Positions 1,473 to 42,741 of a stretch of 42,741 nt of DNA are shown here, piece by piece; positions within the stretch are counted from its first letter, which is position 1; each line of letters starts with the position of its first letter. The DNA is taken from the IMG/VR virus record IMGVR_UViG_3300013947_000011, positions 1 to 42,741 of that record. One strand, written 5' to 3'. Position numbers and translations under genes: made by a program. Source of the stretch: a virus. The notes under the pieces are model-generated. The model was not told the DNA's origin. It saw only the letters and a list, made by a program, of their open reading frames with translations, and searched no databases.

Positions 1473-1954
1473 ACCTGTATCAGATCGATTCCGCGATTGC
1501 CGAGTGCGTAGACGCGGAAAGCGGCGAAGTCCTCGATTTCGACAAACTCGCGGAACTGAGCATGGAACGCGACCGCAAGATTGAGAACATCGCCCTTTGG
1601 ATTAAGAACGACCTCTCCGAGGCTAAGGCCATCCGGGAGGAAGAGAAGTCGCTTGCCGCCCGCCGCCAGTCCCTGGAACGTGCGGCAGAGAGCAAAAAGC
1701 ACTATCTGGAGTCTGTGCTCAACGGAGAAAAGTTCTCCACGGCTAAGTGCTCCATCAGCTTCCGCACCACCACGAGCGTGGAGTTGGAGGACATGGCCGC
1801 TGCGGTGGCGTGGATGGTGGCGAACGGCCACGGGGACGAAGTTTCCCGTCCGGCTCCCACGGTGAGCAAGACAGACTTGGCCCGGCTGATGAAAACCGGG
1901 GCACAAATCGACGGCGCACGGCTCGTGCAAGGCCGCAGTATGGGGGTAAAGTGA
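1469..1954 (+). CDS. Siphovirus Gp157-like protein
   Basis: TTG start 7 nt after GGAG. N-terminus MNLYQID and coiled-coil layout are typical of the Gp157 family. It lies next to a recombinase gene. Confidence 0.6.
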   Translation: MNLYQIDSAIAECVDAESGEVLDFDKLAELSMERDRKIENIALWIKNDLSEAKAIREEEKSLAARRQSLERAAESKKHYLESVLNGEKFSTAKCSISFRTTTSVELEDMAAAVAWMVANGHGDEVSRPAPTVSKTDLARLMKTGAQIDGARLVQGRSMGVK

Positions 1955-2598
1955 TGGACAATCTCGCAATCTATAACGCCGTGCGCAAGGTACCCGAGAA
2001 CGCAAAGCGGCCCATTTCGGCTGGTAGGCTGAAGGGCAAGACGGATATCAACCCCATGTGGCGCATTAAGGCACTCACAGAACAGTTTGGACCCTGCGGA
2101 ATCGGCTGGAAGTACACCATCACCGACAAGCGCCTGGAAAACGGCGCGAACGGAGAAATCTCCGCATTCCTGGACATTGACTTGTTTGTTAAGGTGGGCG
2201 ACACGTGGTCCGACGCAATACCCGGAACCGGAGGGAGTGCATTTGTTGCCAAAGAGAAAAACGGGCCGTACACCTCCGACGAATGCTTCAAGATGGCTCT
2301 GACAGATGCGATTTCCGTGGCATGCAAGGCTCTTGGATTTGGAGCCGATGTGTACTGGGACGCTGATAGGAGCAAGTACGACAAGACCGCTAGGGAGCCT
2401 TCCGGGAAAGAGAGCCCCGGCGGTGCACAGGAACCCACTGGCCCCGCCTGCGACATGTGCGGGCACGTCATCGCCCCGAAAAAATGCGGCGGTAAGGAAT
2501 ATTCCGTTGCCGATATCATCGCCGGGTCCATGGCCAAGTACAAGAAACAGCTCTGTTGGACATGCATGCGGGCCATCAATGCGGAGAATAAGGCATGA
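1954..2598 (+). CDS. Single-strand annealing protein, Rad52/Sak-like, with C-terminal zinc ribbon
   Basis: ATG at 1954 overlaps the upstream TGA. Motifs INPMWRIKALTEQFGPCGIGW and DAISVACKALGFGADVYW resemble Rad52-type SSAPs. It lies between Gp157 and SSB. Confidence 0.55.
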   Translation: MDNLAIYNAVRKVPENAKRPISAGRLKGKTDINPMWRIKALTEQFGPCGIGWKYTITDKRLENGANGEISAFLDIDLFVKVGDTWSDAIPGTGGSAFVAKEKNGPYTSDECFKMALTDAISVACKALGFGADVYWDADRSKYDKTAREPSGKESPGGAQEPTGPACDMCGHVIAPKKCGGKEYSVADIIAGSMAKYKKQLCWTCMRAINAENKA

Positions 2599-2927
2599 AC
2601 GACCTGGTTACAGAGATCGGCAACAAGAGCCGGATGCTGGACGTGGCCATAACGGAACTAAAAAAGCGCGGGCAGAAATATGCGGAGGCTGAAAAAGCCT
2701 ACCGCATAGCCCTGGCGCGGTGCATCCTCGACGAGCGCGAGAAGGGCACGCCGGTGACGATCATCTCCGATATCTGCCGTGGCTCCGCGCAGATAGCCAG
2801 TCTGCGGTTTGAACGGGATTGCGCAGAGGTGGTGTACAAGTCGGCCATGGAAGCCATCAACTCCATGAAGCTGCAAATCCGACTCATGGACAGCCAGCTT
2901 GACAGAGAGTGGGGTGCTGCGAAATGA
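2595..2927 (+). CDS. Hypothetical early protein
   Basis: ATGA coupling at both ends. Coding-like composition. Confidence 0.55.
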   Translation: MNDLVTEIGNKSRMLDVAITELKKRGQKYAEAEKAYRIALARCILDEREKGTPVTIISDICRGSAQIASLRFERDCAEVVYKSAMEAINSMKLQIRLMDSQLDREWGAAK

Positions 2928-3451
2928 GCCGACGTGAGTTTTCAAGGACCAAGGACATCGCCGGGCAGCGGTTCGGCAAACTGGTAGCGCTATATCCCCT
3001 CCCCCGTGCGGCGACGTGGGGGAACACATACTGGGTGTGCCGGTGCGATTGCGGCAACAAGACGATTTCTAATGGCGCGAACTTGCGCAGAGGGCACAAA
3101 AAGTCCTGCGGGTGCATTAAACACCGGGTTACTCCGACCTACCTGACGTGGAACGGCGAAAAGAAAACAATCTGCGATTGGGCCATAATTACCGGAATCA
3201 GCCCGGACTTAATCCGCAAGCGCTGGAAAGCTGGGTGGCCCGTAGACGCTATCTTCACTGAGGTAGAGAAACCGCAATTGTGCTGGGGCTGCGCCAAGGC
3301 ATGCGGTGGGTGCTCCTGGTCAAAGCGGTTTGAGCCGGTCCCCGGTTGGACCGCAACGCCCACCCTGCTGAGCGGAAAAATATCGTCATTCAGAATCACG
3401 GAGTGCCCGGAGTTCGTATCGGACGGAACGGAGTACGATCCCGATGAGTGA
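2924..3451 (+). CDS. Hypothetical Cys-rich (putative zinc/DNA-binding) protein
   Basis: ATGA overlap at 2924. Motifs WVCRCDCGN...SCGC and CWGCAKACGGCSW. Confidence 0.55.
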   Translation: MSRREFSRTKDIAGQRFGKLVALYPLPRAATWGNTYWVCRCDCGNKTISNGANLRRGHKKSCGCIKHRVTPTYLTWNGEKKTICDWAIITGISPDLIRKRWKAGWPVDAIFTEVEKPQLCWGCAKACGGCSWSKRFEPVPGWTATPTLLSGKISSFRITECPEFVSDGTEYDPDE

Positions 3452-4324: not shown

Positions 4325-5032
4325 ATGCCGAATAGGATTATAAACGAGAAAATCCGCACAAGCAAATCTATCAACCGTCTTACGGATTTCCAATTTCGGC
4401 TTTGGACATATTTGCTGACTTATGTGGACGACTACGGGCGCGGGAGCGCGGACCCCGAAATATTGAAGGGTTTCGTGTTCCCCCGCCGGGCAATCCGGGA
4501 ACAGGATATTCAGAAGGGCCTTGATGCACTGGACCGCAATGGTAGCATTCTCCTCTATGAAGTTGCAGGAGAACCCTATTTTTGCCTGCCGGGCTGGGCT
4601 AAGTATCAGAGGATACAGCAGAAGAAAGCCAAGTTCCCCGACCCACCGGAATCCGCAAACGGGCAGGATTCCACGGTTATCCACGGTGAGTCACGGTGTG
4701 CCACGGTGAGTCACGGTGAGTCACCGCCTGAATCCGAATCCGAATCCAATCCGAATCCAAGAGAGAAAAACGCGCACGCCGCGCGTTTCTCCCCACCAAC
4801 CGTTGATGCTGTGGCGGAATATGTCCGCGAGAAGGGCTATCACGTCAACGCAGATCGCTTTGTGGCCTTCTACCAGCAGAAGGGCTGGATGGTCGGCAAA
4901 AACCCCATGAAGGACTGGAAAGCTGCCGTCCGCACATGGCATTACCGGGACAACCCAAAGCCGCCAGCGGAGCAGAAAGCCCCAAAATGGACGTACAACT
5001 CCGACACCGGCGGCTGGACGCAGGAGGACTGA
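4325..5032 (+). CDS. Replisome organizer / replication initiator (DnaD-like C-terminus)
   Basis: The N-terminus (FQFRLWTYLLTYVDDYGRG) is typical of phage replisome organizers. It lies directly upstream of DnaB and contains internal iterons. Confidence 0.7.
   Translation: MPNRIINEKIRTSKSINRLTDFQFRLWTYLLTYVDDYGRGSADPEILKGFVFPRRAIREQDIQKGLDALDRNGSILLYEVAGEPYFCLPGWAKYQRIQQKKAKFPDPPESANGQDSTVIHGESRCATVSHGESPPESESESNPNPREKNAHAARFSPPTVDAVAEYVREKGYHVNADRFVAFYQQKGWMVGKNPMKDWKAAVRTWHYRDNPKPPAEQKAPKWTYNSDTGGWTQED
4671..4758 (+). repeat. Iteron array inside the organizer gene: six phased 10-bp YCACGGTNNN units followed by five GAATCC-type hexamers (candidate ori)
   Basis: CCACGGTTAT CCACGGTGAG TCACGGTGTG CCACGGTGAG TCACGGTGAG TCACCGCCTG, then GAATCCGAATCCGAATCCAATCCGAATCC. 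Confidence 0.8.
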
Positions 5033-7083: not shown

Positions 7084-7553
7084 ACGCCGAAAGCGAACTG
7101 CTGGCCAAGATTATCCCCGGCGGCGAGGAAGTGCGCGGAAGCGATAAGCCGGAGCAAAAGGAATCCGCACTCTTGCGGTTCGCGGGCGGCGAACTCCGCG
7201 TACTGGTTACCAAGCCGTCTATAGCCGGATTTGGGATGAACTGGCAGCAATGCCACAACATGATATTTGTAGGTCTGTCCGACAGTTATGAGCAGATGTA
7301 CCAAGCCATCCGCAGGTGCTACCGGTTCGGGCAAAAACTGCCCGTAAATGTGCATATTGTCACGTCTGCGGCAGAGGGAGCCGTGAAAGCCAATGTGGAC
7401 CGCAAAGAGCGGCAGGCTGCGGAAATGAAGCAGAATATGGTGCGGTACACGAAAGAAATCTTGAGAAAGGATATCCGGGGGCAGGAACGGGTTGCTATCC
7501 CGTACAACCCGCAGATCGCGATGATTGTCCCGGAATGGGTAATAGGCGCATGA
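7020..7553 (+). pseudogene. SNF2/DEAD-type helicase remnant, C-terminal RecA2 lobe only
   Basis: The frame is open from 6939 with no ATG or GTG; TTG at 7080 is the only start-like codon. The translation EKAAEIIAGNPDEQWLCWCDLNAESELL...RVLVTKPSIAGFGMNWQ...QAIRRCYRFGQ carries helicase motifs IV-VI. Motifs I-III are absent from the window. Confidence 0.6.
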
Positions 7554-8491
7554 ACGTATTGGACCAATTTATTGGACGCAGATATGCAGTGTATAACGGG
7601 GATAGCTGCGAGGTGCTGAAAGGCATCCCCGATAACAGCATCCACTACTCCGTTACCTCCATCCCGTTTGCAAGTCTGTATACATACTCCAACAGTGACC
7701 GAGACATGGGCAACTGCCGGAGTTATGAGGAGTTCGCTGAACAGTATATGTACCTTGGCCGCGAATGGTATCGCGTAATGATGCCAGGGCGGAATGTAAG
7801 CATCCACTGCATGAACCTTCCTACCAGTAAGGAGCGGGATGGGTATATCGGAATCCGGGACTTCCGGGGCGACGTGATTCGTTGGATGCAGTCTCTGGGG
7901 TTCATTTACCATAGTGAGGTGTGCATCTGGAAGAATCCCGTAACCGCCATGCAGAGAACCAAGGCTCTGGGGCTGCTGCATAAGCAGATTAAAAAAGACT
8001 CCTGCATGAGCCGGATGGGCATCCCGGACTATGTGGTGACATTCCGCAAGCCGGGAGAAAATCCGGAGAGGGTTTCCCACACGGACGGCACATATCCAGT
8101 ATCCAAGTGGCAGCAGGTAGCATCTCCTATTTGGGAGGAATACGCATCTCCCACATGGTGGGACATCAACCAGAGTGATACGCTTAATCGTAAAGCGGCA
8201 AAAGACGAGAAAGACGAGCGGCATATCTGCCCATTGCAGCTTTCCGTAATCGAGCGGTGCGTGGAGCTGTGGAGCAATCCCGGGGACATTGTGATGGATC
8301 CCTTCGATGGAATCGGCTCCACCGGATACCAGTCCATTTTGATGGGACGCAGACATATTGGCGTGGAGCTGAAGTCCAGTTATTTCCGACTCGCTGCGGA
8401 AAACTGCGCACAGGCCGAAAAAATGGCCGCGGAGGGTGTTCAGGCAGAAAACGGATATACGCTGTTCGACATGATGGAGGGAGCAATATGA
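7550..8491 (+). CDS. DNA methyltransferase, N6-adenine/N4-cytosine (N6_N4_Mtase) family
   Basis: ATGA overlap at the start. Catalytic-type motif TSIPF near the N-terminus and SAM motif DPFDGIGSTG near the C-terminus (beta-class order). Confidence 0.8.
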   Translation: MNVLDQFIGRRYAVYNGDSCEVLKGIPDNSIHYSVTSIPFASLYTYSNSDRDMGNCRSYEEFAEQYMYLGREWYRVMMPGRNVSIHCMNLPTSKERDGYIGIRDFRGDVIRWMQSLGFIYHSEVCIWKNPVTAMQRTKALGLLHKQIKKDSCMSRMGIPDYVVTFRKPGENPERVSHTDGTYPVSKWQQVASPIWEEYASPTWWDINQSDTLNRKAAKDEKDERHICPLQLSVIERCVELWSNPGDIVMDPFDGIGSTGYQSILMGRRHIGVELKSSYFRLAAENCAQAEKMAAEGVQAENGYTLFDMMEGAI

Positions 8492-10101
8492 TCTACGCAC
8501 AAGAATCCCTCATTGATGAGATTATCGTGGACAACTTCGCGGGCGGGGGTGGTGCGTCAACCGGGATTGAGCTTGCCACGGGCAGGCGGGTGGCAATCGC
8601 CATCAACCACGACCCGGACGCCATCCGGATGCACCGTACCAACCACCCATACACCGCGCATTTGCAGGCGTCCGTATGGGATGTGGACCCGGTAGCCGAG
8701 TGCCGGGGCAGACCGGTGGGGCTGGCGTGGTTCTCGCCGGATTGCAAACACTTCTCCAAAGCCAAGGGCGCGGCGTTGGTGGACCGCAAAATCCGCGGAC
8801 TCGCCTGGATTACGCTGTGCTGGGCGGCAAAAGTACGGCCCCGGGTCATCATCTTGGAAAACGTGGAGGAGTTCCAGACCTGGGGGCCGGTGCGGAAGGG
8901 CAAGCCGGTGAAGAAGCTGGCGGGCACCACGTTCCGGAAGTTTATCAGCCAGCTTGAGGCGCTGGGCTACACCGTGGAGTTCCGGGAATTGGTGGCGGCG
9001 GACTACGGAGCGCCCACCTCCCGCAAACGCTTTTACCTGATTGCCCGTTGTGACGGAAAACCCATTGTGTGGCCGAAGCCCACCCACAGCAAGACCGGTG
9101 CAGATGGATTGCCCAAGTGGCGCAGCGCGGCGGAGATCATCGACTGGAGCCTGCCTTGCCCATCGGTATTCGATACCAAGGCGGACATCATGGGTAAATA
9201 TGGCCTGAAAGCGGTACGCCCTCTGGCGAAAAACACCATGCGGCGGATTATTCGAGGGGTGGACAAGTTTACCATCCGGAGGGGGAAACCGTTTATCGTG
9301 GAATGCAACCACTCCGGCGGCGGTCATATCGCGCCTGTGGGAGACGCATATAAAACCATCACCGCAAAGCATACGGGCGGCATTGTGTGTCCCTCACTGA
9401 TCCAATACCACACGGAACAGGCGGAACACGTCCGGGCGTCCGGGCTGGGTGCGCCCATCAATACCGTGGACGCCTCCAACCGCTACGGCCTGACCTGCGC
9501 CAATCTGGTGGAGTATTACACCGGCGGCAGACCGCTGGACATTACGGACGCTATGCACACGGTAACAAGCCATGATCGTGAGTCCGTGGTGGCCGCTCAC
9601 ATTGCCAAGTATTACGGCGGCGTGGTCGGCGAAAAGGTGGGCGAGCCGTTGCCGACGGTGACGGCCAGCGCTGGAAAGAAGCGGGCGTGCAGCGGCGGAA
9701 CATTCGCCGTGTGCAAGGCCCATCTGGCGAAGATGCGCAGCGGAGACAACCTGGGGCACTGGCCGGAGATTCGCGCTCTACTGAACGAGTTTTGCGGTTA
9801 TACTCTGGCGGAGGACGAGGTGCTTTTGCTGGAGATCGGCGGAACCCTGTACTACATTGCGGATATCGGACTGCGGATGTTGTCTCCGCGCGAACTGTAT
9901 AACGCCATGGGCTTTCCGCCGGATTACATCATCGACCACGACTATGAGGGGAAAGAGTACAAAAAGAGTGCACAGGTGGCCCGCTGCGGAAATGCCGTGT
10001 GCCCGCCCATGGCGACGGCTCTGGTGAGGGCAAACCTCCCGGAGTGGTGCGGGGCGGAGATCACGACCATGGCACAACTAACGGACTGTGTGGCGGTGTG
10101 A
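8488..10101 (+). CDS. DNA (cytosine-5) methyltransferase
   Basis: ATGA overlap at the start. Motif I DNFAGGGGAS, motif IV FSPDCKHFS, motif VI ILENV, C-terminal GNAVCPP. Long variable region between them. Confidence 0.88.
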   Translation: MIYAQESLIDEIIVDNFAGGGGASTGIELATGRRVAIAINHDPDAIRMHRTNHPYTAHLQASVWDVDPVAECRGRPVGLAWFSPDCKHFSKAKGAALVDRKIRGLAWITLCWAAKVRPRVIILENVEEFQTWGPVRKGKPVKKLAGTTFRKFISQLEALGYTVEFRELVAADYGAPTSRKRFYLIARCDGKPIVWPKPTHSKTGADGLPKWRSAAEIIDWSLPCPSVFDTKADIMGKYGLKAVRPLAKNTMRRIIRGVDKFTIRRGKPFIVECNHSGGGHIAPVGDAYKTITAKHTGGIVCPSLIQYHTEQAEHVRASGLGAPINTVDASNRYGLTCANLVEYYTGGRPLDITDAMHTVTSHDRESVVAAHIAKYYGGVVGEKVGEPLPTVTASAGKKRACSGGTFAVCKAHLAKMRSGDNLGHWPEIRALLNEFCGYTLAEDEVLLLEIGGTLYYIADIGLRMLSPRELYNAMGFPPDYIIDHDYEGKEYKKSAQVARCGNAVCPPMATALVRANLPEWCGAEITTMAQLTDCVAV

Positions 10102-12484: not shown

Positions 12485-12559
12485 ACAGGCGTAGCCAAAA
12501 GGTAAGGCATGGGACTTTGACTCCCGTATGTGCTGGTTCGACTCCAGCCGCCTGTTCCA
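12485..12559 (+). tRNA. tRNA-Gln (anticodon UUG), CCA encoded
   Basis: Hand-folded cloverleaf. Acceptor ACAGGCG/CGCCTGT. D-arm with GG. Anticodon stem UGGGA/UCCCG with loop CUUUGAC. T-arm GCTGG-TTCGACT-CCAGC. Discriminator T plus CCA. Confidence 0.72.
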
Positions 12560-12659
12560 AATGGCAAAGCTGGCAGAGTACAGGGGAGAAGTCCCCGCCA
12601 GCAGCCCCCGGCCAGGGAATGGCAAGCCGTAGCCGCTCGGCGCACAATAAGCGGCATAC

Positions 12660-12729
12660 GCAGGCGTAGCTCAACGGCGAGAGCGGCCAGAGAGACGCGA
12701 TGCAGGTTCAACTCCTGCCGCCTGTTCCA
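12660..12729 (+). tRNA. tRNA-like element / degenerate tRNA (no anticodon arm)
   Basis: Acceptor GCAGGCG/CGCCTGT plus TCCA, D-arm GCTC-AACGGCGA-GAGC and T-arm GCAGG-TTCAACT-CCTGC are intact. Only 16 nt with no 5-bp stem lie where the anticodon arm and variable loop (about 21 nt) should be. Confidence 0.35.
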
Positions 12730-12854
12730 ACAACCAGGGATAGCCCGACGGGGCGACAAACGGCCATTACCTGCCTTATGGCCGCTTCCCTGGTGATTTA
12801 TTAAGGCAGTGACATTGAGAGCAGTACAAAATTTATATAAAGGCAGGTAATCGC

Positions 12855-14492: not shown

Positions 14493-15143
14493 ATGGCAAG
14501 TAAAATCACACAGGTTATGCGAGAACAGGTCCTTGCCGACTATGACGCGTGTAAGCATATAGCGACTGTAGCAAAGCAGAACGGGCTATCCGAACCGACT
14601 ATCCGAAAGATCATCGTACAAGAACGCGGAGAGAATGCCATCTCGCATAAAGCTGGCGCTGCATCTGCATCTGTAACGGCCAGATGTACCGCGACGAACG
14701 AAGAAATCTCACAAATCGTTAGGGAGTCATTCCAATACTTCAAGAGATCCTGCGTAAAGACTGACGAAGAATGTGCTGATAGGCTTAACGACTATTTCAG
14801 GCAGTGTGTAGAAGAAGGGCAAATCCCTACGGTGGAAGATATGTGCCTCGCTCTCGGAGCCGTAAACCAAACGGTCTTGGACTGGCAAAAGGGATCAATG
14901 GGCCCCGTGAGAGCTGAAATGATGAAAAAAGCCAAACAAATTCTGGCCGGAATCGATGCAAAACTGGTCTCACAGGGCAAAATTCCGCAGATTACGTACA
15001 TTTTCCGCGCGAAGAACTTTTTCGGCATGACCGACAGGCAGGAAGTTGTTCTCACGCCGAACAATCCACTTGGGGCAGAAACGCCGCCCGAGGAACTCCA
15101 GAAGAAGTACATCGAGGCGGCGTCATGCGACTATGAAACTTGA
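14493..15143 (+). CDS. terS: Terminase small subunit with N-terminal HTH
   Basis: GQIPTVEDMCLALGAVNQTVLDWQK...IFRAKNFFGMTD matches the Terminase_2-type small subunit. Good GGAGG RBS. Confidence 0.68.
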   Translation: MASKITQVMREQVLADYDACKHIATVAKQNGLSEPTIRKIIVQERGENAISHKAGAASASVTARCTATNEEISQIVRESFQYFKRSCVKTDEECADRLNDYFRQCVEEGQIPTVEDMCLALGAVNQTVLDWQKGSMGPVRAEMMKKAKQILAGIDAKLVSQGKIPQITYIFRAKNFFGMTDRQEVVLTPNNPLGAETPPEELQKKYIEAASCDYET

Positions 15144-15274
15144 TTTTCTTAGCGACTATTCAGCAACTTTCGGAATGTGGGCAACGTTTTCCCCGGGTTT
15201 ATACACGGTTTAGCGACTATCAGCGACTTTCGCGCAGAAACCGGGCGACTATCAGCAACTTTCGCAGCGACTAT
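15127..15274 (+). repeat. Five GCGACTAT boxes, three of them within 20-21-nt GCGACTAT(T)CAGCRACTTTCG repeats
   Basis: Boxes start at 15127, 15152, 15214, 15245 and 15267, beginning at the terS stop codon. Confidence 0.85.
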
Positions 15275-15547
15275 GGCACACAGACGGTCACGCAGGGAAC
15301 CGCCCGGGACTGTACAGGAATCTCCACAGAACCCGCCGCAGAACCGCGCGGGAATCTGCCCGAAAACAGGGAGCGGCCCAGGATGACCGCCAGAATGCAG
15401 CGGAACCACCCCGGCGGAACCCAGACGCACAGCGCCCCACAGCGCCCCAGCACGGCGCGAAAGCACACGGCAATATAGGGATAGCGCCACACGCGCGGAA
15501 CGCGCAGAGGGCCGTTAAAATGCGATTCGGGACGGGGCACAAAGAAA

Positions 15548-15604
15548 CCCGCACAGCCTAAGCCATGCGGGCAAAAGGAAAGCCGCCCCGGAAACCGGGA
15601 CGGC
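15548..15604 (-). terminator. Two tandem intrinsic terminators for the leftward operon
   Basis: Read on the minus strand: GCCGTCCCGG-TTT-CCGGGGCGGC followed by TTTCCTTTTG (15571-15604), then CCCGCA...TGCGGG followed by TTTCTTTG (15536-15571). Confidence 0.7.
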
Positions 15605-15619
15605 CTGTTGCCTGGTAGG

Positions 15620-15817
15620 TCATCTGTAGAGATACTGCCGGATGCAATATTGGGTACTGCAATAGCAGGGGAGCAGCACATATAGCTGACCCTTGCGATT
15701 GCCCCCGGCGGCCTGTACCGGCTGCGCGTCGGGGTCTGCCAGGCGGCTAACGTATCCGCGCTGGTACTTGGTGTCGGCTGCCTTATATCCGGCCTTGATC
15801 GCGTCTGCGTATGTCAT
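15620..15817 (-). CDS. Hypothetical small protein (65 aa, MTYADAIKAGYKAADTKYQRGYVSR...)
   Basis: Internal ATG at 15817 with an AAAGGA RBS. From memory, it resembles small conserved proteins of Firmicutes conjugative elements. Confidence 0.5.
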   Translation of the reverse strand: MTYADAIKAGYKAADTKYQRGYVSRLADPDAQPVQAAGGNRKGQLYVLLPCYCSTQYCIRQYLYR

Positions 15818-15954
15818 GATAATATATCCTTTCCGGGGCTTGGGGCCCCTGTCAGACGGTTGATTGGTTACTTGGATTTGTGGACCACGTCGGCCAGGAC
15901 GGCCAGCGGAAACCAGATGATCAGCAACAAGAGAGATAGCAATCCTGCACCCCC

Positions 15955-16230
15955 TCAAACCAGGCAAAACCGGCGCGAGGTGGTCTGTTTGGTATACTTG
16001 GCGTACAGATCCGGCTGATCGGCCTTGAGGGACTTAGAGTCCAGCCGGGACGATGTAACGGACTTGTAGGTGATCTTGTAATCCAGGCCCGCCAGGGTAT
16101 CAACCCCGGCGGCGTCCATGTGCTGCTTGATGGAGTCTTGCAAGCTGTCGATCTCTGCGGCCAGCTCATCGGCCATGCGGCGGAGCTCTCTAAGCTCCTG
16201 GACCTTGGCGGCGATCTCGTTAGCGCTCAT
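15955..16230 (-). CDS. Hypothetical coiled-coil protein (91 aa, MSANEIAAKVQELRELRR...TTSRRFCLV)
   Basis: ATG at 16230 with a GGAGG RBS. ATGA overlap with the upstream gene. Confidence 0.6.
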   Translation of the reverse strand: MSANEIAAKVQELRELRRMADELAAEIDSLQDSIKQHMDAAGVDTLAGLDYKITYKSVTSSRLDSKSLKADQPDLYAKYTKQTTSRRFCLV

Positions 16231-16622
16231 GATTGCACCTCCTTGCAAGCGGCGACAACAACGCGGGCCGCCTGATATAGGGCGCGGGCCTGGACGTCAA
16301 GCCACGTCTCTATGCGGTTGGGATTGCGTGCACCGTAGCGCGTCTTGCGCAGCTCGGAGGGTGTGCAGAGCCGCTCGGCGATGTCCCCATCATACACCAG
16401 GGAGCAGCCGCCGGAACTGTACTCGCTCCAGCTCCTGGCACCGCCCAACATCCACTCGCGGAGCTGGGCGGCATCTTCGGGGCCGTGGCCCTCATAAGCC
16501 GCATACCCCTCCAGGCTGCCCAGCAGGTCCAGCGCGTAGGCGATAACACCGCGCTGCCATGCGCTACGGGTGCGCACACGCTCGATCTCCTCACGCGCCG
16601 CGTCATAGTTGATATCCATCAT
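16227..16622 (-). CDS. Hypothetical protein (131 aa)
   Basis: ATG at 16622, 8 nt after GGGAGG. First gene of the leftward operon. Confidence 0.6.
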   Translation of the reverse strand: MMDINYDAAREEIERVRTRSAWQRGVIAYALDLLGSLEGYAAYEGHGPEDAAQLREWMLGGARSWSEYSSGGCSLVYDGDIAERLCTPSELRKTRYGARNPNRIETWLDVQARALYQAARVVVAACKEVQS

Positions 16623-16771
16623 GATACATACCTCCCGGCCTTATTGGCCTATCTCTTGACCAGGTGGGCCGGGCGTGGTACACTGTACCCGCTGGGCCTC
16701 TGGTCTGGTGTGGGGAGCGTGTCCGCATTGCTTGACCGGCGGCGGGTGCGCTCCTCTGCTCTACACATACC

Positions 16772-16799
16772 ATTATAGCAGATTATGCGTAATTGTCAA
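16772..16799 (-). promoter_or_regulatory. Near-consensus sigma-70-type promoter firing leftward (TTGACA-16 nt-TATAAT)
   Basis: Plus-strand ATTATA at 16772-16777 and TGTCAA at 16794-16799. TGCGTAATT direct repeats at 16786 and 16817 overlap or flank it. Confidence 0.6.
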
Positions 16800-16941
16800 T
16801 AGCAAAATCATGATTTTGCGTAATTTGCGGGTAGCGGACCGCGCGATAAGTGACCGGGGCGGGGGATATTTGGGACGAGAGCGGGGCCGGGTAAGCCCCG
16901 AAATGCCCGCAAAAAATAAAAGAGAAAAACAAAATGGCGGC

Positions 16942-16971
16942 TTGACATTTACGTTTACTGTGTGGTACAAT
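16942..16971 (+). promoter_or_regulatory. Promoter for the recombinase gene (TTGACA-18 nt-TACAAT with TG-extended -10)
   Basis: TTGACA at 16942-16947 and TACAAT at 16966-16971. It is followed by the palindrome AATCCAA-TT-TTGGATT at 16985-17000. Confidence 0.5.
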
Positions 16972-17022
16972 AACCGTAGAAGCCAATCCAATTTTGGATT
17001 GACCCCAAAGGAGGAGAGCCGC

Positions 17023-17784
17023 ATGAAAAACGTGGTTGCGTATATCCGCGTGAGCACAGACGGGCAAACCGGAGAAGATAAGTTCGGCCTGGACGTGCAG
17101 CGCGAACAGATAGAGGAATACTGCCGCAAGAACGACATGAACATCATGCGGTGGTTTTCCGACGAGGGAGAGAGCGGCGCAAAGTACCGCCCCGGGTTTG
17201 ACGAGATTGTTTACGGAGAGGTGAGCAATCCCCCTTATGAAGCTGTAGTAGTTGCGAAATCTGACCGAGTGGCCAGAGACATCAACATATACTTTTACTA
17301 CCAAGGCGCACTGCTTCGCAAAGGCATTGAGCTAATCAGCATCTGCGAGGACTTCGGGCAATTTGGCGTATTTGCCGGGATGCTCAAGGCGTTCACCCTG
17401 ACGTGCGCCGAGATGGAACGGGACAATATCAACAAGCGCACGAGCGCTGGCAGAGCAGTTAAAGCCTCCCGAGGCGGCTATTCTGGTGGTCGCGCACCTA
17501 TGGGGTACGAAGTTCGCGGCGGCGCGCTCTGCATTAACGAGAAAGAAGCGGATGTTGTCCGGCGGGTATTTGAGCTTCGGGACGGCGGCGTGACTCTTAA
17601 TGGAATCGTGGACAGTCTCAACAAGGACGGGTATACCACTAGGAACGGGAAGCCGTTCGTTATCAGCACGGTGCAAAGCATCGTGAACAACCGGAAAACC
17701 TACGAAGGGTTTTACCGGTACGGGAAAAACAAGGAATGGGTCAAGGGCCAGCATGAACCGATTCTGGCAACGGGCGCGAAGTGA
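17023..17784 (+). CDS. Serine recombinase, truncated large-serine-recombinase type (253 aa)
   Basis: Catalytic N-terminus VAYIRVSTDGQ...SDRVARD and recombinase-domain motifs GRAPMGYE. It ends right after the conserved HEPI motif (QHEPILATGAK*). No zinc-ribbon or coiled-coil region is present. Confidence 0.8.
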   Translation: MKNVVAYIRVSTDGQTGEDKFGLDVQREQIEEYCRKNDMNIMRWFSDEGESGAKYRPGFDEIVYGEVSNPPYEAVVVAKSDRVARDINIYFYYQGALLRKGIELISICEDFGQFGVFAGMLKAFTLTCAEMERDNINKRTSAGRAVKASRGGYSGGRAPMGYEVRGGALCINEKEADVVRRVFELRDGGVTLNGIVDSLNKDGYTTRNGKPFVISTVQSIVNNRKTYEGFYRYGKNKEWVKGQHEPILATGAK

Positions 17785-17834
17785 AGTAATTCCCCCGGCC
17801 AACCGGGAGAAAATAAATGTGGAGGAAAAGGAAA

Positions 17835-18302
17835 ATGAAAGCAAAGAGAGTGTGGGCGATGCTGCTTGCCATCATGGTGGCGGCAATTGCTATGGTCGGG
17901 TGCAGCGACGGCACCGCGGACCAACCGGATGACGGCGAGACCGGAAATCAGACCGTTGAGAAGGTCGTATATGACGGCGAGACGTTCAAGGCAACGTACC
18001 TGGGCATCACGGAGCTAGATTCCGTGCCGGGGGTCTGCTACATCCAGATGAAGTTTGAGAACAAGACGGACCAGGAAATCACAGTATATCCGCAGGACAG
18101 CTCTGTGAATGACACGATGGTCCAGTACTTGGGCGGAGTCCCCGCAACAATGCAGGGCGGGAAAAACATCAATTATTCCATGTTTTTCTACCTTGAAAAG
18201 GCTGGCATGTCCGACATTTCCGAGGTCAAAACACTTGAGTTCAAACTGACCGCTGATTTCAACGAGACCTCTGACACGATCACAATCAACGTGGGTGAGT
18301 AA
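17835..18302 (+). CDS. Lipoprotein (signal peptide plus lipobox AMVGC), DUF4352-like beta-sandwich
   Basis: MKAKRVWAMLLAIMVAAIAMVGCSDG. GGAGG lies 9 nt upstream of the ATG at 17835. Confidence 0.75.
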   Translation: MKAKRVWAMLLAIMVAAIAMVGCSDGTADQPDDGETGNQTVEKVVYDGETFKATYLGITELDSVPGVCYIQMKFENKTDQEITVYPQDSSVNDTMVQYLGGVPATMQGGKNINYSMFFYLEKAGMSDISEVKTLEFKLTADFNETSDTITINVGE

Positions 18303-18320
18303 TCTATACAAGCAAATAAA

Positions 18321-18354
18321 AGAGACGAGTTCTTTCGGGAACCCGTCTCTTTTT
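18321..18354 (+). terminator. Intrinsic terminator after the lipoprotein gene
   Basis: AGAGACGAGTTC-TTCG-GGAACCCGTCTCT followed by TTTT. Confidence 0.8.
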
Positions 18355-18373
18355 ATGCGCAAAAGGAGGACAC

Positions 18374-20029
18374 ATGGACTACGCGAAACTGGCAGAAAAC
18401 ATAAAACAGCATATTGCGCGGAATCCGTCTGACCATGTGCCGTACATGGACCTTCTATCCGTGTGCCGACAGTTAGAGCCGGATGATTTCGCTCTGGCCC
18501 ACGCGCTGAACAAGGATTTGCGAAAGCTGAGTTCTTCTGCCCTGCACACGTGCAGCGCAAAGGCGGCGGATTCTCTGTTCGACGTGTACAAAAAGGCCAT
18601 GTGCTTTGACGCACCGCACGATTTCGATACGTTCCTGCTGTACATCGAGATGAACCGCAAGCCGGAGAAGAAATTCTACGCGCCCAGGCGACATTACCTG
18701 CGGCCAATTGTGGCGGCGTATCAAGAGGTTTTGGACGGAAAGCTGCGGCTTTTGACGCTGTCACTGCCCAAACGCGCCGGGAAATCTCAGTTGGGTATCA
18801 ATTTTGTCAATTTCCTGTCCGGGCGGGAACCGGACAAGTCGTCCCTGATGGAGGGGACGGGAGACGACTTGGTGAAAAGCTTCTATTCCGGGTGCCTGGA
18901 GTATCTGCAAACGCCGAATGAATATTTATTCTATGACGTTTTCCCCAATTCCCCGCTGGTGCAGACCAATGCGGACACAAAGATACTGAATCTTCGGTCA
19001 AAATCCCGTTTCCCAACGGTTATGTGCCGCTCCATCGACGCAAGACAGGTGGGCCTGTCGGAGGCTACGAACGTCCTATATCTGGATGACTGCGTAGAGG
19101 GCCGCGAGGAAGCGAAAAACCGCCAGAGACTGGACGATAAGTGGGAGGTTATATCCGGCGATATTCTGGGCCGCGCCATTGAGGGTACACCAATCGTCGC
19201 CACGGGGACCCGGTATTCCCTGTATGACCCCATCGGCCACCTTCAGGAGGAAGCGCAAAAGGGCGGATGGGCCTGGAAAGCCATCGAAATACCGGCGCTT
19301 GACCCCGTTACGGACGAGAGTAACTACGAATACGAACGGGACGGCAAAAAGGTGTTTACCACGGCGTATTTCCGCGAACAGAGGGAGCTTTTGAGCGCGG
19401 AACAGTTTGAAAGTGAATTCCAGCAGCAGCCCTTTGAGGCGAAGGGGCTGCTTTTTAACAAAGATGAGCTGAACTATTTCTTTGAGTTGCCCACGGACCG
19501 TGGCCCGGACGCTGTTATTGCCGTGTGCGACACCGCAGAAAGCGGCAGCGACAGCACTGCCCTTCCCGTGGCGGCGCTGTACGGGGATGAGGTGTATATC
19601 GTGGACGTGGTGTTCGACGATTCACCGCCGGACGTTACAAAGCCGGAATGCGCCAAGTGCCTGATAGACAACCACGTTGCGGACGCGCTGTTTGAAAGCA
19701 ATAACGCGGGCATGTACTACGCCAGAGATGTTGCGGAAATCGTCCGCCAGCGTGGATATAGCGTCGGAATACGCACAAAGAGGACCATTTCCAACAAACA
19801 GACGCGAATTGAATTTGCGTCCGACAACATCAAAAAACACTTCTGGTTCAAGCATCCGTCCACCTATAAGCGGGGTAGCCAGTACTTCAATTTCATGAAG
19901 GAAGTCACCACCTACACCCGGAGCGGCAAGGTGCCGCACGATGACGCGCCGGATTCCCTGTCCCTGCTGGAGAACGAAATCCGAATGCGCGTGGGCGGAA
20001 AGGTGGAAGTGTTCAAGCGGCCATTTTAA
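18374..20029 (+). CDS. terL: Terminase large subunit
   Basis: Walker A LPKRAGKSQ, Walker B LYLDD, and a C-terminal RNaseH-like nuclease region (AVCDTAESGSDSTA, HDDAPDS). Confidence 0.88.
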   Translation: MDYAKLAENIKQHIARNPSDHVPYMDLLSVCRQLEPDDFALAHALNKDLRKLSSSALHTCSAKAADSLFDVYKKAMCFDAPHDFDTFLLYIEMNRKPEKKFYAPRRHYLRPIVAAYQEVLDGKLRLLTLSLPKRAGKSQLGINFVNFLSGREPDKSSLMEGTGDDLVKSFYSGCLEYLQTPNEYLFYDVFPNSPLVQTNADTKILNLRSKSRFPTVMCRSIDARQVGLSEATNVLYLDDCVEGREEAKNRQRLDDKWEVISGDILGRAIEGTPIVATGTRYSLYDPIGHLQEEAQKGGWAWKAIEIPALDPVTDESNYEYERDGKKVFTTAYFREQRELLSAEQFESEFQQQPFEAKGLLFNKDELNYFFELPTDRGPDAVIAVCDTAESGSDSTALPVAALYGDEVYIVDVVFDDSPPDVTKPECAKCLIDNHVADALFESNNAGMYYARDVAEIVRQRGYSVGIRTKRTISNKQTRIEFASDNIKKHFWFKHPSTYKRGSQYFNFMKEVTTYTRSGKVPHDDAPDSLSLLENEIRMRVGGKVEVFKRPF

Positions 20030-38090: not shown

Positions 38091-38101
38091 GCCCAGTTCT
38101 C

Positions 38102-38124
38102 AAATTACCCACGAAATTACCCAC
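38102..38124 (+). repeat. Arm-type repeat pair AAATTACCCAC-GAAATTACCCAC (left of attP core)
   Basis: The same tandem pair recurs at 38322-38344. Confidence 0.8.
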
Positions 38125-38171
38125 GCGCCCAGTAAAATCGAGCAACACCAATATGATTAGCCGCTTTTAGC

Positions 38172-38199
38172 TGGGGTTCGAATCCCCGACGGGGCACCA
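38172..38199 (+). other. attP core: 3' fragment of a tRNA gene (T-arm, acceptor 3' strand, ACCA)
   Basis: TGGGG-TTCGAAT-CCCCG-ACGGGGC-A-CCA. No matching 5' acceptor strand (GCCCCGT), D-arm or anticodon arm lies upstream. Confidence 0.7.
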
Positions 38200-38203
38200 A
38201 ATT

Positions 38204-38248
38204 AAAACCCGTGTATCCGCAATGGATATGCGGGTTTTCTTTTGTTTT
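38204..38248 (+). terminator. Strong intrinsic terminator after the lysis genes / tRNA fragment
   Basis: 15-bp stem AAAACCCGTGTATCC/GGATATGCGGGTTTT with a 5-nt loop, followed by TTTTCTTTTGTTTT. Confidence 0.85.
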
Positions 38249-38321
38249 CGAGGGGTTTCTGCGTTTCACCTTCCTGCGTATTCCGCAAGAAATTCGCAGT
38301 TCATGCGCATATTTTACACAC

Positions 38322-38344
38322 AAATTACCCATGAAATTACCCAC
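38322..38344 (+). repeat. Arm-type repeat pair AAATTACCCAT-GAAATTACCCAC (right of attP core, next to int)
   Basis: 22 of 23 nt identical to 38102-38124, in the same orientation. Confidence 0.8.
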
Positions 38345-38357
38345 AAAAAACCGGACC

Positions 38358-39365
38358 CTACTCCGGCGTGATGATTCCCTCGAAAAAGCTGTCCACTTTT
38401 TCGGACACAGCTTTCTGCCCACTTGACATGGTGTGCTGGTAAACTGTTTTCAGCATGATATCCGTGGCATGCCCCATGCGCTCTTGTGCGTACTTGTTTG
38501 GGATGCCAAGCGCAAGCATAACACTGGCGTTAATATGGCGCAGATCGTGAAACCTGTAATGCTGAACCCCGGCCCGCTTGCAGATTGTCTGGAACCGGGA
38601 ATAAAGTGACTGCCGCTTCCCAGGGAAAACGTACTCTGATGCGTGGGGAGCGTCCTCCATCAGCCGCAGGATATATTCCGGCACCAGCAAATCCCGCTGT
38701 GAGCTGTAGGTCTTTGTGGTTTTCTCGCCCTCGTCTACCCTGGCCCGCCGGATGTGGAGCACATTGCCGTCGAGATCGTCCCATTTCAGGCCGAGGATTT
38801 CTGACATGCGCAGCCCCATCCAGACGGCCAGCATGATGGGCAATTCGTCACTTGTCCCCTTTGCCGCTTTCGCAATCTTAGCAATATCTTCGACGGACGG
38901 TATTGCAATGTCATATTTCACCTTCTGTGGGAATGTTGTGTGGAACGTCATATCCGGGTTGTAGGCCGTCAGAGCCGCGCTCAGAAGTCCGTGGGCGTTC
39001 CGGACGCTCTTGGGCGACCTCTCCTTTGCCATCTCGTTCACGGCCTTCTGGACTGCCTGCTGCGTCACTGTGCTTACCGGTGTACTCGCCAGCCACTCCG
39101 GCAGGGCATTCGCCTGAATCCGCCTATACCCGGCGATTGTCGATGGGGACAGCACGGCATCCTTGCTGTCAATGTACAGGTCTATCGCCTCGCCAACGGT
39201 TATGTCTCGCCGTTTCTGGGCGCTCTGCAAGCCCGTTTTCACGGCGGCGGCCTTAGCCTCCGCCTCCCTTTTCGTCGGCTCTGTGATAGACAGGCGAACA
39301 CCGTCCACCATTAGCTTTACGTTCCAGTTGCCGGACGGCAGCTTTGTGGCCTTTGGTATTTTCAT
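38358..39365 (-). CDS. int: Tyrosine integrase
   Basis: ATG at 39365 after GGAGG. N-terminal SAM-like domain. Catalytic motifs LRMSEILGLKW (Arg), HDLRHINAS (HxxR), MGHATDIMLKTVYQH (His...Tyr). Confidence 0.92.
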   Translation of the reverse strand: MKIPKATKLPSGNWNVKLMVDGVRLSITEPTKREAEAKAAAVKTGLQSAQKRRDITVGEAIDLYIDSKDAVLSPSTIAGYRRIQANALPEWLASTPVSTVTQQAVQKAVNEMAKERSPKSVRNAHGLLSAALTAYNPDMTFHTTFPQKVKYDIAIPSVEDIAKIAKAAKGTSDELPIMLAVWMGLRMSEILGLKWDDLDGNVLHIRRARVDEGEKTTKTYSSQRDLLVPEYILRLMEDAPHASEYVFPGKRQSLYSRFQTICKRAGVQHYRFHDLRHINASVMLALGIPNKYAQERMGHATDIMLKTVYQHTMSSGQKAVSEKVDSFFEGIITPE

Positions 39366-39625
39366 TGGTGTACCTCCTTCGTAGAATTTTCTCCGCCCGA
39401 TTTGGGCAGAATGCGGATTGACTAATTCGAACAAAAGTTCTATTATTGAATGCATAGAGAAACCGAGGATAAACCCGCCAGGAAATTCATTAGATTCTGT
39501 TTGTTTGCCCCGCAGTTCTCGGTGTGTGGAACTCGCGGAGCGATTTTGAAAAAAATCTGACTATCCGTGCATACTATAGTTGGCATTTTCAACACGAGGG
39601 CCAAAAAGTATGGTAGGATGGTTAC

Positions 39626-40846: not shown

Positions 40847-40859
40847 TACATTTTCCCCC

Positions 40860-40888
40860 TTTACAGGCATATAATTATTGGCTATAAT
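40860..40888 (+). promoter_or_regulatory. Rightward early promoter 1 (TTTACA-17 nt-TATAAT)
   Basis: 25 of 30 nt identical to the promoter at 41530-41559. Confidence 0.65.
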
Positions 40889-40959
40889 AAAGGTGGTACG
40901 ACAACAAACAACGGGATAAAAACGCAAATAACGGATTACTCGAAAAGGAGGAACATATC

Positions 40960-41436: not shown

Positions 41437-41529
41437 GGTTCCCTCATTTCTCGCCCGCTTGTGCATCATTGCCAAGACGAGCGGTATTTTTTTGTATGTA
41501 TTTATTGGCATAAAAGTAATGCCTTCCGC

Positions 41530-41558
41530 TTGACAGGCATAAAATATATGGCTATAAT
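41530..41558 (+). promoter_or_regulatory. Rightward early promoter 2 (TTGACA-17 nt-TATAAT, full consensus)
   Basis: The spacer GGCATAAAATATATGGC is an imperfect dyad. Confidence 0.7.
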
Positions 41559-41627
41559 AGCAGTACAGACATTGATAAAGGCAACAAAAACCCAGGCCCC
41601 CAAAGATTTCATTTCTTTTGCGGGCTT

Positions 41628-42295: not shown

Positions 42296-42741
42296 ATGAA
42301 AGCTTACAAGGGGTTCGACAAGGACCTGAAGTGCCGCAGTTTCCAGTATGAGGTCGGCGGAGAGTATGAGGAGCAGGAGGCCAGTATTTGCCGCAAGGGC
42401 TTCCATGCATGTGAGAACCCGCTGGACACGCTGCGGTACTATCGCCCCGGCGATAGCCGTTACTGCGAGGTGGAACTGGAGGATAACGGCCAGCGCAATG
42501 GTGACGATTCCAAGGTGTGCGGCAAGAAAATCAAGATCGGCGCAGAAATCGGGCTGGATGGCGTAATCGAGGCCGGAGCGCGGTTCATCTTTGAGAAATG
42601 CGAGGGAGTATCCGAAGATCGTGCATCTGGCGAGAATGGCAACGCCGCCGCTTCTGGCTGGAGTGGCAACGCCGCCGCTTCTGGCGTGAGGGGCAACGCC
42701 GCCGCTTCTGGCGTGAGGGGCAACGCCGCCGCTTCTGGCGT
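42296..42741 (+). CDS. N-terminal part of the tandem-repeat phage protein (continues at position 2)
   Basis: GGAGGAG RBS. My own translation: MKAYKGFDKDLKCRSFQYEVGGEYEEQEASICRKGFHACENPLDTLRYY..., then GNAAASGxx repeats. There is no stop codon before the window end. Confidence 0.8.
   Translation, partial: MKAYKGFDKDLKCRSFQYEVGGEYEEQEASICRKGFHACENPLDTLRYYRPGDSRYCEVELEDNGQRNGDDSKVCGKKIKIGAEIGLDGVIEAGARFIFEKCEGVSEDRASGENGNAAASGWSGNAAASGVRGNAAASGVRGNAAASG
42638..42741 (+). repeat. 27-bp tandem repeat, 3.85 copies at the window end (same unit as 2-217)
   Basis: Identical 21-nt core. Positions 42691-42741 are identical to 1-51. Confidence 0.95.

Follow-up and report, generated by a model that had tools for sequence, protein, structure and literature searches.

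A hypervariable accessory bay between the terminase genes in a lineage of temperate phages

The DNA described here, IMG/VR record IMGVR_UViG_3300013947_000011, is a stretch of 42,741 nucleotides (nt; 'the window') from a virus, and the part of it that concerns us is the interval of 3,230 nt, 15144-18373, that separates terS, the gene for the small subunit of the terminase, from terL, the gene for the large subunit. Throughout the lineage to which this phage belongs, the interval is a hypervariable accessory bay: its position is fixed and its contents are swappable. We think it probable that the window holds the local copy of a region situated between terS, with the adjoining putative pac site, and terL in temperate siphoviruses of gut Oscillospiraceae. 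The small genes that are exchanged there probably serve host takeover or immunity. Two transcription units appear to occupy the bay. Unit L, antisense to the packaging genes, would comprise a promoter (P_L), a leader, three small genes (p131, p91 and p65) and two terminators. Unit R, divergent and self-contained, would comprise a promoter (P_R2), a short serine recombinase gene, a lipoprotein gene and a terminator. Host RNA polymerase would read both units independently of the late operon, in the lysogen, directly after DNA entry, or both. The products of unit L may be small binding proteins for phage-host conflict, and the cargo of unit R may be a protein of the cell envelope that acts in superinfection exclusion or modifies the surface.

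A constant interval with changing contents

A scan of IMG/VR with terL found 430 relatives, and the best 80 of these were analysed. They fall into three classes of terL identity: group A (26 loci, 96-97%), group B (~42 loci, 81-84%) and group C (12 loci, 79%). Both terminase genes could be placed in 72 loci, and in all 72 they are separated, by 2,810-5,145 nt (median 3,757 nt); in none are they adjacent. A comparable gap occurs in prophages of Oscillospiraceae (Dysosmobacter segnis, Faecousia and Ructibacterium) and of Lachnospiraceae isolates and metagenome-assembled genomes, the TerL proteins of which are 63-79% identical to that of the window. Because the gap is found in all 72 relatives and in distant prophages, it is not the product of a recent insertion into one phage. 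An earlier reading of the window, made from the sequence only, had taken adjacent terS and terL genes as the norm and had suggested that the interval might be the remnant of an integrated element; neither view survives this comparison. That a foreign element integrated between the two genes and then decayed, leaving the recombinase as a truncated integrase, is now hardly credible and largely refuted. The recombinase does lack a zinc-ribbon and coiled-coil part, and the G+C content of the region (0.58-0.61) is slightly higher than that of its flanks, but no direct or inverted repeats were found flanking the region, the ~250-amino-acid (aa) form of the recombinase is kept down to 30% identity with its catalytic residues intact, and the elements of the chassis are common to phages with TerL proteins 79-97% identical.

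The contents of the bay behave differently. When slot contents in the relatives were scored by tblastn, p91 was present in 56/70 relatives (80%), which makes it the most conserved gene of its operon, p131 in 45/70 and p65 in 13/70. Universal sharing of these genes as parts of a conserved packaging module, which would have told against the accessory nature of the region, is thus not seen. Within group A, a blastn conservation profile alternates blocks present in 100% of loci with blocks present in 0-77%. The constant blocks are terS and the ~130 nt that follow it, 15848-15955, 16628-16718, 16856-16929, 17776-17837, and 18309 onward. The variable blocks are 15275-15546, p65, p91, p131, a promoter-plus-recombinase block, and the cargo gene. 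The breakpoints between them repeat to within a few bases, at 15262-70, 15569/83, 15848-69, 16242, 16628-16718, 16856-16929, 17776-17837 and 18309. Related phages, in other words, swap open reading frames (ORFs) at recurrent breakpoints inside conserved linkers, and homologous recombination at these 60-110-nt linkers probably shuffles the cassettes, with site-specific exchange as a possible alternative. The features of the window to which we refer, including all those that the sequence-only reading had listed for the interval and that were found again where it had placed them, are as follows.

14493-15143, plus strand: terS, 216 aa, with a weak N-terminal helix-turn-helix and a gp3-like packaging domain
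15127-15274, plus strand: repeat array of eight GCRACTWT motifs, mostly 10-12 nt apart (8 of the 11 matches in the whole 42.7-kb window)
15275-15546, no strand: slot 0, a G+C-rich spacer without a convincing gene; some relatives have small plus-strand genes here
15606-15580 and 15572-15547, minus strand: two tandem terminator-like hairpins at the end of unit L, with stems of 11 and 12 pairs and moderate U-tails
15620-15817, minus strand: p65, 65 aa, isoelectric point (pI) 9.3, slot 3, no family match
15848-15955, minus strand: linker between p91 and slot 3, with a small hairpin and a ribosome-binding site; in 100% of group A, whichever gene lies downstream
15955-16230, minus strand: p91, 91 aa, with a 4-nt ATGA overlap with p131
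16227-16622, minus strand: p131, 131 aa, all-alpha, slot 1, first gene of the leftward operon
16623-16718, minus strand: conserved leader of unit L, with a long and a small hairpin and a Shine-Dalgarno sequence, in groups A and B
16799-16772, minus strand: P_L, predicted sigma-70 promoter TTGACA-16-TATAAT, 12/12 plus TG (extended -10), from a promoter scan
16856-16929, no strand: 74-nt G+C-rich hairpin and A-tract between the divergent promoters, found throughout group A (100%) and in 69% of group B and 58% of group C
16942-16971, plus strand: P_R2, predicted promoter of recombinase and cargo, 11/12 plus TG, from a promoter scan
17023-17784, plus strand: short serine recombinase, 253 aa (Pfam Resolvase, E 1.6e-24; Recombinase, E 8e-12)
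17776-17837, plus strand: junction consisting of the palindrome TTCCCCCGG-CCAA-CCGGGAGAA (17790-17811), a GGAGGA ribosome-binding site and the cargo start codon
17817-18302, plus strand: lipoprotein in the cargo slot, acidic (pI 4.6); ATG 17835, preceded by GGAGGA, is the likelier start
18318-18353, no strand: bidirectional terminator, a hairpin with an A-run upstream and a T-run downstream, in all of group A
18374-20029, plus strand: terL, 551 aa (PHROG 38, E 2e-45)

In the sense of Hendrix and Juhala, a moron is an autonomous extra gene in a late operon. Both units of the bay have a promoter and termination signals of their own (P_L and two terminators for unit L; P_R2 and 18318-18353 for unit R), and the cassettes vary among relatives, so that the description of the region as autonomously transcribed appears sound. 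A moron in the strict sense also lies between genes that are neighbours in related phages, and in this respect the region differs. The flanking genes are not adjacent in any of the 72 relatives, the smallest gap being 2810 nt: the bay itself is constant, and it is single cassettes that come and go. The sequence of slot 0, 15275-15546, is matched in 0-4% of group A, and at 88% in one phage only (L001, GenBank MT836871). Another relative (L004) has the same expression design and different cassettes. The leftward operon lies on the minus strand in all loci of groups A and B, and neither around it nor elsewhere in the window are there inverted repeats; the idea that it is an invertible segment was rejected. 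One phage (L003, MT835537) has an extra slot of ~1.4 kb (1517-3002 of that sequence) between the cargo terminator and the ribosome-binding site of terL; it contains a ribbon-helix-helix-like gene, a 74-aa gene and a Bro-N/KilAC antirepressor.

The leftward operon and its small proteins

The leftward three-gene operon was described by the sequence-only reading as having a near-consensus promoter and two tandem terminators; the promoter matches the consensus at 12/12 positions, and both hairpins are present. Taken alone, the promoter scan counts for little, because it found 5 sites where 3.2 were expected. More telling is its setting. A promoter of at least 11/12, with its -10 element ending 56-60 nt upstream of the leader, occurs in 92% of 60 loci vs 1.4% of control windows, and this spacing holds although the promoter block itself exists in unrelated versions. 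The leader is represented by 55 unique homologous sequences from groups A and B, and stands ahead of eight unrelated families of first gene. There is moderate support, from comparison of these sequences, for an RNA structure in the leader. Its long stem occurs as GACCAG/CTGGTC or GCCAAC/GTTGGC, which differ by three compensatory pairs, and its small hairpin, GGCC-loop-GGCC beside the Shine-Dalgarno sequence, has one compensatory variant. RNAalifold chose a different, weak structure on account of a gap that MAFFT had placed in one arm of a hairpin, and the hairpin was then examined sequence by sequence. The leader also contains a conserved promoter-like site on the plus strand that faces P_L (16656-16684, TTGACC-17-TACACT plus TG; in the type B leader, TTGCCA-17-TATACT), and face-to-face interference between the two promoters is possible.

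Of the three proteins encoded by this operon, p131 is the most widespread, with ~5,739 homologues. It is also quick to diverge: its alleles are only 48-78% identical among phages whose TerL proteins are 96-97% identical. It belongs to no Pfam or PHROG family, and its AlphaFold2 model has a mean predicted local distance difference test score (pLDDT) of 82.7. Homologues of p91 number 631, nearly all of them 91 aa long. This protein resembles the C-terminal region of the PHROG 434 exonuclease (E 1e-15), and also PHROG 6244 and 1956, and more weakly Sipho_Gp157 and Mu Gam-like proteins; its model consists of a 39-residue helix and a small beta/alpha unit (pLDDT 78.6). That p91 might be a copy of the C-terminus of the phage's own exonuclease was rejected, as the two have no similarity. 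The 54 homologues of p65 are all ~65 aa. Profile searches with p131 and p91 against solved structures found nothing. NCBIfam was uninformative for the small proteins, and Pfam and PHROGs returned only families of unknown function for 8-10 proteins from alternative cassettes. The three were said to have no assigned function, and this stands: none could be placed in Pfam, matched to PADLOC or given a known fold. The checks proposed for them, structure prediction and PADLOC, yielded models without a known fold (p131 and p91) and no PADLOC match. Their suggested likeness to proteins of Firmicutes conjugative elements is borne out only loosely. Homologues of p91 do occur in small integrase-bearing islands; p131, in most of the contexts seen, is found in phage terminase regions. 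The trio as such was not found outside phages: the genes beside p91 in the integrative islands are unrelated to its partners here.

The company kept by p131 offers leads to a function. Among its best 120 homologues, six are fused to AcrIC5, an acidic inhibitor of type I-C CRISPR (e.g. P0040, E 1.7e-21). One such fusion, in L086, lies antisense at the equivalent terS-terL locus, beside resolvase genes. Next to a terL of another family, a further p131 homologue is the first gene of an antisense operon, and phage terminase regions account for most of the p131 contexts seen. One of the proteins that replace p131 in slot 1 has a pI of 4.05 and a net charge of -33, like inhibitors that mimic DNA. 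A Lachnospiraceae prophage (L099, 7508-9677) has an antisense operon of its own, comprising a p131 homologue, a 96-aa Cys-rich protein and an FtsK/HerA-like ATPase.

The nearest precedent, by location, strand and autonomy, appears to be Tab of Pseudomonas phage JBD26, a moron of 83 aa that lies on the minus strand between terS and terL, has its own promoter and provides prophage-borne defence (PMC10884400). Unit L shares with Tab its position between the terminase genes, its orientation opposite to the late operon, its own promoter, and its variability among relatives (PMC10884400). It differs in that Tab is a single gene of a Mu-like phage, whereas the bay has an operon of three slots behind a conserved leader, and a second, divergent unit besides. 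Unit L also recalls acr-aca operons and other anti-defence clusters, in its strong, constitutive-type promoter, its very small and fast-evolving proteins, the turnover of cassettes at a fixed locus, and the fusion of a p131 homologue to AcrIC5. Unlike those operons, it has no Aca-type helix-turn-helix gene and no recognised anti-defence domain in p131, p91 or p65, and its conserved member, p91, is not a helix-turn-helix protein.

A role in conflict is suggested by the AcrIC5 fusion in L086, the highly charged alternative in slot 1, the divergence of p131 alleles, the acidity of AcrIC5 and the Tab precedent. The sequence-only reading had named defence, anti-defence or lysogenic conversion as the likely business of the region, and with the AcrIC5-fused homologues, the lipoprotein and membrane-protein cargo, and Tab in view, this is still the most reasonable reading. 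As to which, counter-defence is the likelier role for unit L, a preference that we hold tentatively; prophage-borne defence comes next and is distinctly less probable. In the Tab-like form of the latter, the antisense operon would be constitutive in lysogens, its small proteins would stop the replication or assembly of an incoming phage, the lipoprotein would block DNA entry, and the resident phage would escape by means of a cognate, late-expressed factor. Position, strand and autonomy, with promoter and terminators of its own, are as in JBD26; p91 resembles an exonuclease C-terminal module and Gam/gp157-like proteins, and is also carried by integrase-bearing islands; and the cargo consists of lipoproteins and membrane proteins. 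PADLOC, however, found no match, and in contrast to the Tab/anti-Tab arrangement there is no obvious anti-factor gene directly after terS in the window, slot 0 being non-coding. The AcrIC5 fusion and the hyper-acidic alternative, moreover, favour counter-defence.

Several results weigh against this overall reading of the bay. PADLOC matched 0 families among six window proteins at E values up to 0.1, and no protein of unit L has a significant match to a known defence or anti-defence family. The p131 of the window itself carries no Acr domain; matches to Tad3 among p131 members are sub-threshold (8/39, best E 0.0025); and fold searches found nothing better than E ~0.5 for p131 in the PDB and BFVD, or for p91 in the PDB. 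The compensatory pairs of the leader's long stem come from two haplotypes only, and the folding z-score of the window's leader, as a single sequence, is -1.69. A strict pattern search for the putative operator motif ATTAYGCRTAAT, discussed below, did not generalise across recombinase alleles. Kept as it is in 80% of relatives, p91 could be a conserved regulator instead of a weapon. And a serine recombinase, either the short form or a ~200-aa true small resolvase, is present in the interval of 70/70 relatives, which hints at a core phage function and not at cargo.

The divergent unit, its recombinase and its cargo

Unit R begins with a rightward promoter ahead of a gene of large serine recombinase (LSR) type. 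On these two points the sequence-only reading was right, the promoter matching at 11/12 positions. It also took the gene to be truncated, which, in the sense of decayed, is not supported. The protein matches the N-terminal half of CcrB, and it has neither zinc ribbon nor coiled coil; nor has it the C-terminal helix-turn-helix of the small resolvases, in place of which is an LSR-type Recombinase domain. Homologues 49-99% identical all stop 2-9 residues past a HEPIL motif. When 1.84 billion cluster representatives were scanned in full with HMMER, 28,832 relatives came to light. The ~100 nearest of these (34-65% identity) are, with few exceptions, 240-270 aa long and have the same end point; full-length recombinases of 470-545 aa appear only below E ~1e-32. 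Among 34 family members, R9, S11, D81, R82 and R85 are at least 90% conserved. As ~250 aa is the native length of the family, and the catalytic residues are kept, the recombinase is, by its sequence, a member of a native ~250-aa family and not a decayed fragment. In Lachnospiraceae relatives (e.g. L099), the slot is occupied instead by a plus-strand XRE helix-turn-helix gene. The recombinase is distinct from the integrase of the phage, which is a separate tyrosine recombinase encoded at 38358-39455. TP901-1 Int, TnpX and CcrB have homologous catalytic and recombinase domains; unlike these large serine recombinases, the short protein is without the zinc-ribbon and coiled-coil domain used for att-site choice and directionality.

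What the recombinase acts upon is suggested by the control region between the two units. A pair of 12-bp palindromes, ATTAYGCRTAAT, at 16782-16793 and 16813-16824, overlaps P_L. The 5' untranslated region of the recombinase gene contains another palindrome, a perfect 8+2+8 one, at 16984-17001. Linkage between the P_L block (16716-16855) and the recombinase allele is complete in groups A and B, although the 74-nt element lies between them, and is in keeping with a cognate pair of protein and site. That ATTAYGCRTAAT itself goes with the recombinase alleles in general was not supported by the strict pattern search. The res-resolvase control regions of Tn3 and gamma-delta, and plasmid multimer-resolution modules, offer a comparison. 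As in Tn3 and gamma-delta, a serine recombinase gene diverges from its neighbouring unit, palindromes lie over the promoters, and promoter block and allele are linked; unlike there, the protein has an LSR-type Recombinase domain and not a C-terminal helix-turn-helix, and no three-subsite res was recognised. By this analogy the recombinase probably binds the linked palindromes of the divergent control region, as Tn3-type resolvases bind res, and it may regulate the unit or recombine at the control region. The 74-nt element is unlikely to be its specific site, since that element occurs upstream of either type of recombinase. The 36 variants aligned (e.g. L004, 8687-8760) span phages with TerL proteins 79-97% identical, and the element contains no terminator on either strand. 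An Rfam scan of 15100-18400 found no family, only a sub-threshold, terminator-like match to sbrA.

At the other end of the interval lies a candidate packaging site. The sequence-only reading spoke of ~480 nt of repeat-rich non-coding DNA after terS. The stretch 15144-15619 is indeed 476 nt long and without a convincing gene; its repeats, though, are confined to the first ~130 nt. The GCRACTWT array is kept in all group A loci, and in group B, where TerS is only 46% identical, at least 10 copies of GCGACTTT occupy the same place, phased at 11-12 or 33 nt. Because this phasing by helical turns and the position beside terS resemble those of a terS-binding region, the array at the 3' end of terS is a candidate terS-binding or pac region.

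Two further explanations depend on this site. In the first, the bay is a 'first-in' conflict platform of interchangeable counter-defence proteins made before host immunity acts. Lying just downstream of pac, it would fall in the terminal redundancy of the first headful and enter the cell first, and its antisense orientation would bring in the consensus promoter ahead of the genes; the leading end of T7 and the leading region of conjugative plasmids are parallels. The short serine recombinases would then form a functional class of their own, a new one, whose members switch or recombine the platform by binding to its divergent control region. We regard this elaboration as doubtful. In the second, the interval is core genome-handling machinery: the repeats are pac, the recombinase circularises injected DNA or resolves multimers within the terminal redundancy, and the small proteins assist or regulate packaging. 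P1, in which Cre-lox lies beside pac, is a parallel. The ubiquity of the recombinase and its intact catalytic residues are as this would require, the gene is 2-3 kb from the pac-like array, and there are palindromes in the control region. Yet unrelated types of recombinase (short LSR-like and small resolvase) interchange at the locus and give way to the XRE gene in Lachnospiraceae relatives, many relatives do without the small genes, an exonuclease is encoded by the phage itself, and a directly repeated recombination site was not identified. We consider this explanation improbable.

Downstream of the recombinase is the cargo slot. The lipoprotein of the window, which had been credited with its own terminator, has a signal peptide and a lipobox, MKAKRVWAMLLAIMVAAIAMVG|C, as judged by inspection against a PROSITE-type rule; the lipobox Cys is present, as are the hairpin and T-run at 18318-18353, just ahead of the ribosome-binding site of terL and 20 nt before the gene itself. 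The protein has no family match. Across the phages compared, the slot is filled by this 161-aa lipoprotein (18 loci), by a protein of 270 aa that has three transmembrane helices and a tRNA_anti-like OB domain (29 loci), by a membrane-anchored protein of 244 aa (20 loci) or by other lipoproteins, and the cargo genes can form arrays of 1-4. Among phage lipoproteins, Ltp of TP-J34 and Llp of T5 act as superinfection-exclusion factors. Like them, the cargo here is a prophage-borne lipoprotein with its own promoter and terminator, exchanged in relatives for other envelope proteins; no sequence similarity to either was detected.

The junction that precedes the cargo is present in 100% of group A, after either type of recombinase and before any cargo, and both cargo ORFs start with MWRKRKM. 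This raises the idea of an integron-like platform, in which the recombinase would capture or swap cargo cassettes at the junctions 17776-17837 and 18309. The recombinase is always directly upstream of the cargo slot, the junctions recur sharply, one of them contains a 9+4+9 palindrome, and the cargo can form arrays. Against this, the same junction follows two unrelated families of recombinase and is conserved within group A only, the conserved flanks, at 60-90 nt, are long enough for homologous exchange, and there is no repeated attC-like site between successive cargo genes; the idea is very improbable.

Significance and the rest of the phage genome

Phages keep their weapons against host immunity in hypervariable loci. 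The locus described here is a sharply bounded bay on a promoter-leader chassis, present in hundreds of genomes of gut Clostridia phages, and its contents are easy to harvest. The candidates include p131, p91, p65, at least seven alternative slot-1 families (among them the one with a charge of -33) and several envelope proteins. To our knowledge, almost no defence or counter-defence genes have been characterised in Oscillospiraceae hosts, and literature searches that extended to hotspot surveys and the GuFi phage preprint brought up no account of it. The bay is a good source of candidates and no categorical surprise; it is a conserved accessory bay and not an insertion. It also draws attention to serine recombinases of ~250 aa, a large family so far overlooked, which keep their catalytic residues and are without the domain that usually chooses the DNA site. 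Annotation pipelines that expect terS beside terL would miss terS in this lineage.

The provisional assignment of terS itself relies on PHROG 606, 'terminase small subunit' (E 3e-9). The match to Pfam GP3_package (E 5e-4) scores 20.7 bits, under the cut-off of 29.4, and a single-sequence search against solved structures (PDB) found no relative. The gene at the equivalent position in L086 has GP3_package. TerS is 94-96% identical in the 26 close relatives and 36-46% identical in more distant ones, and in every case its gene lies upstream of terL.

The window covers the whole genome, ~42.4 kb, of a temperate phage. An identical 27-nt tandem array is found at both ends (1-294 and 42569-42741), and its in-frame product consists of GNAAASGV(R/S) nonapeptide repeats; the window is therefore taken to be a circular, complete genome cut within a repeat-protein gene. 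The gene set of the phage includes a replication initiator, DnaB, two DNA methyltransferases, an endolysin and an exonuclease, besides the tyrosine integrase.

Several features outside the bay deserve mention. Upstream of terS and of Ant/Rha antirepressor genes, 12485-12807 contains a tRNA-Gln gene and a second, odd tRNA-like gene that ARAGORN failed to assign, as well as an Rfam match to the int-alpA sRNA (43 bits, over the gathering score). Five 10-nt iterons (CCACGGTGAGT-like) at 4671-4724, within the replication-initiator gene (4325-5032), are probably the origin of the phage. Repeats of CAAATTACCCAC at 38101-38356, between the endolysin and tyrosine integrase genes, may be arm-type sites of attP. 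A 34-nt promoter-like repeat (TTGACAGGCATA...GGCTATAATA) occurs twice, at 40856-40889 and 41526-41559, in the leftward, lysogeny-side region. The two DNA methyltransferase genes are large and form a tandem pair at 7316-10101 (PHROG 67 and PHROG 116), with a likely function in anti-restriction.

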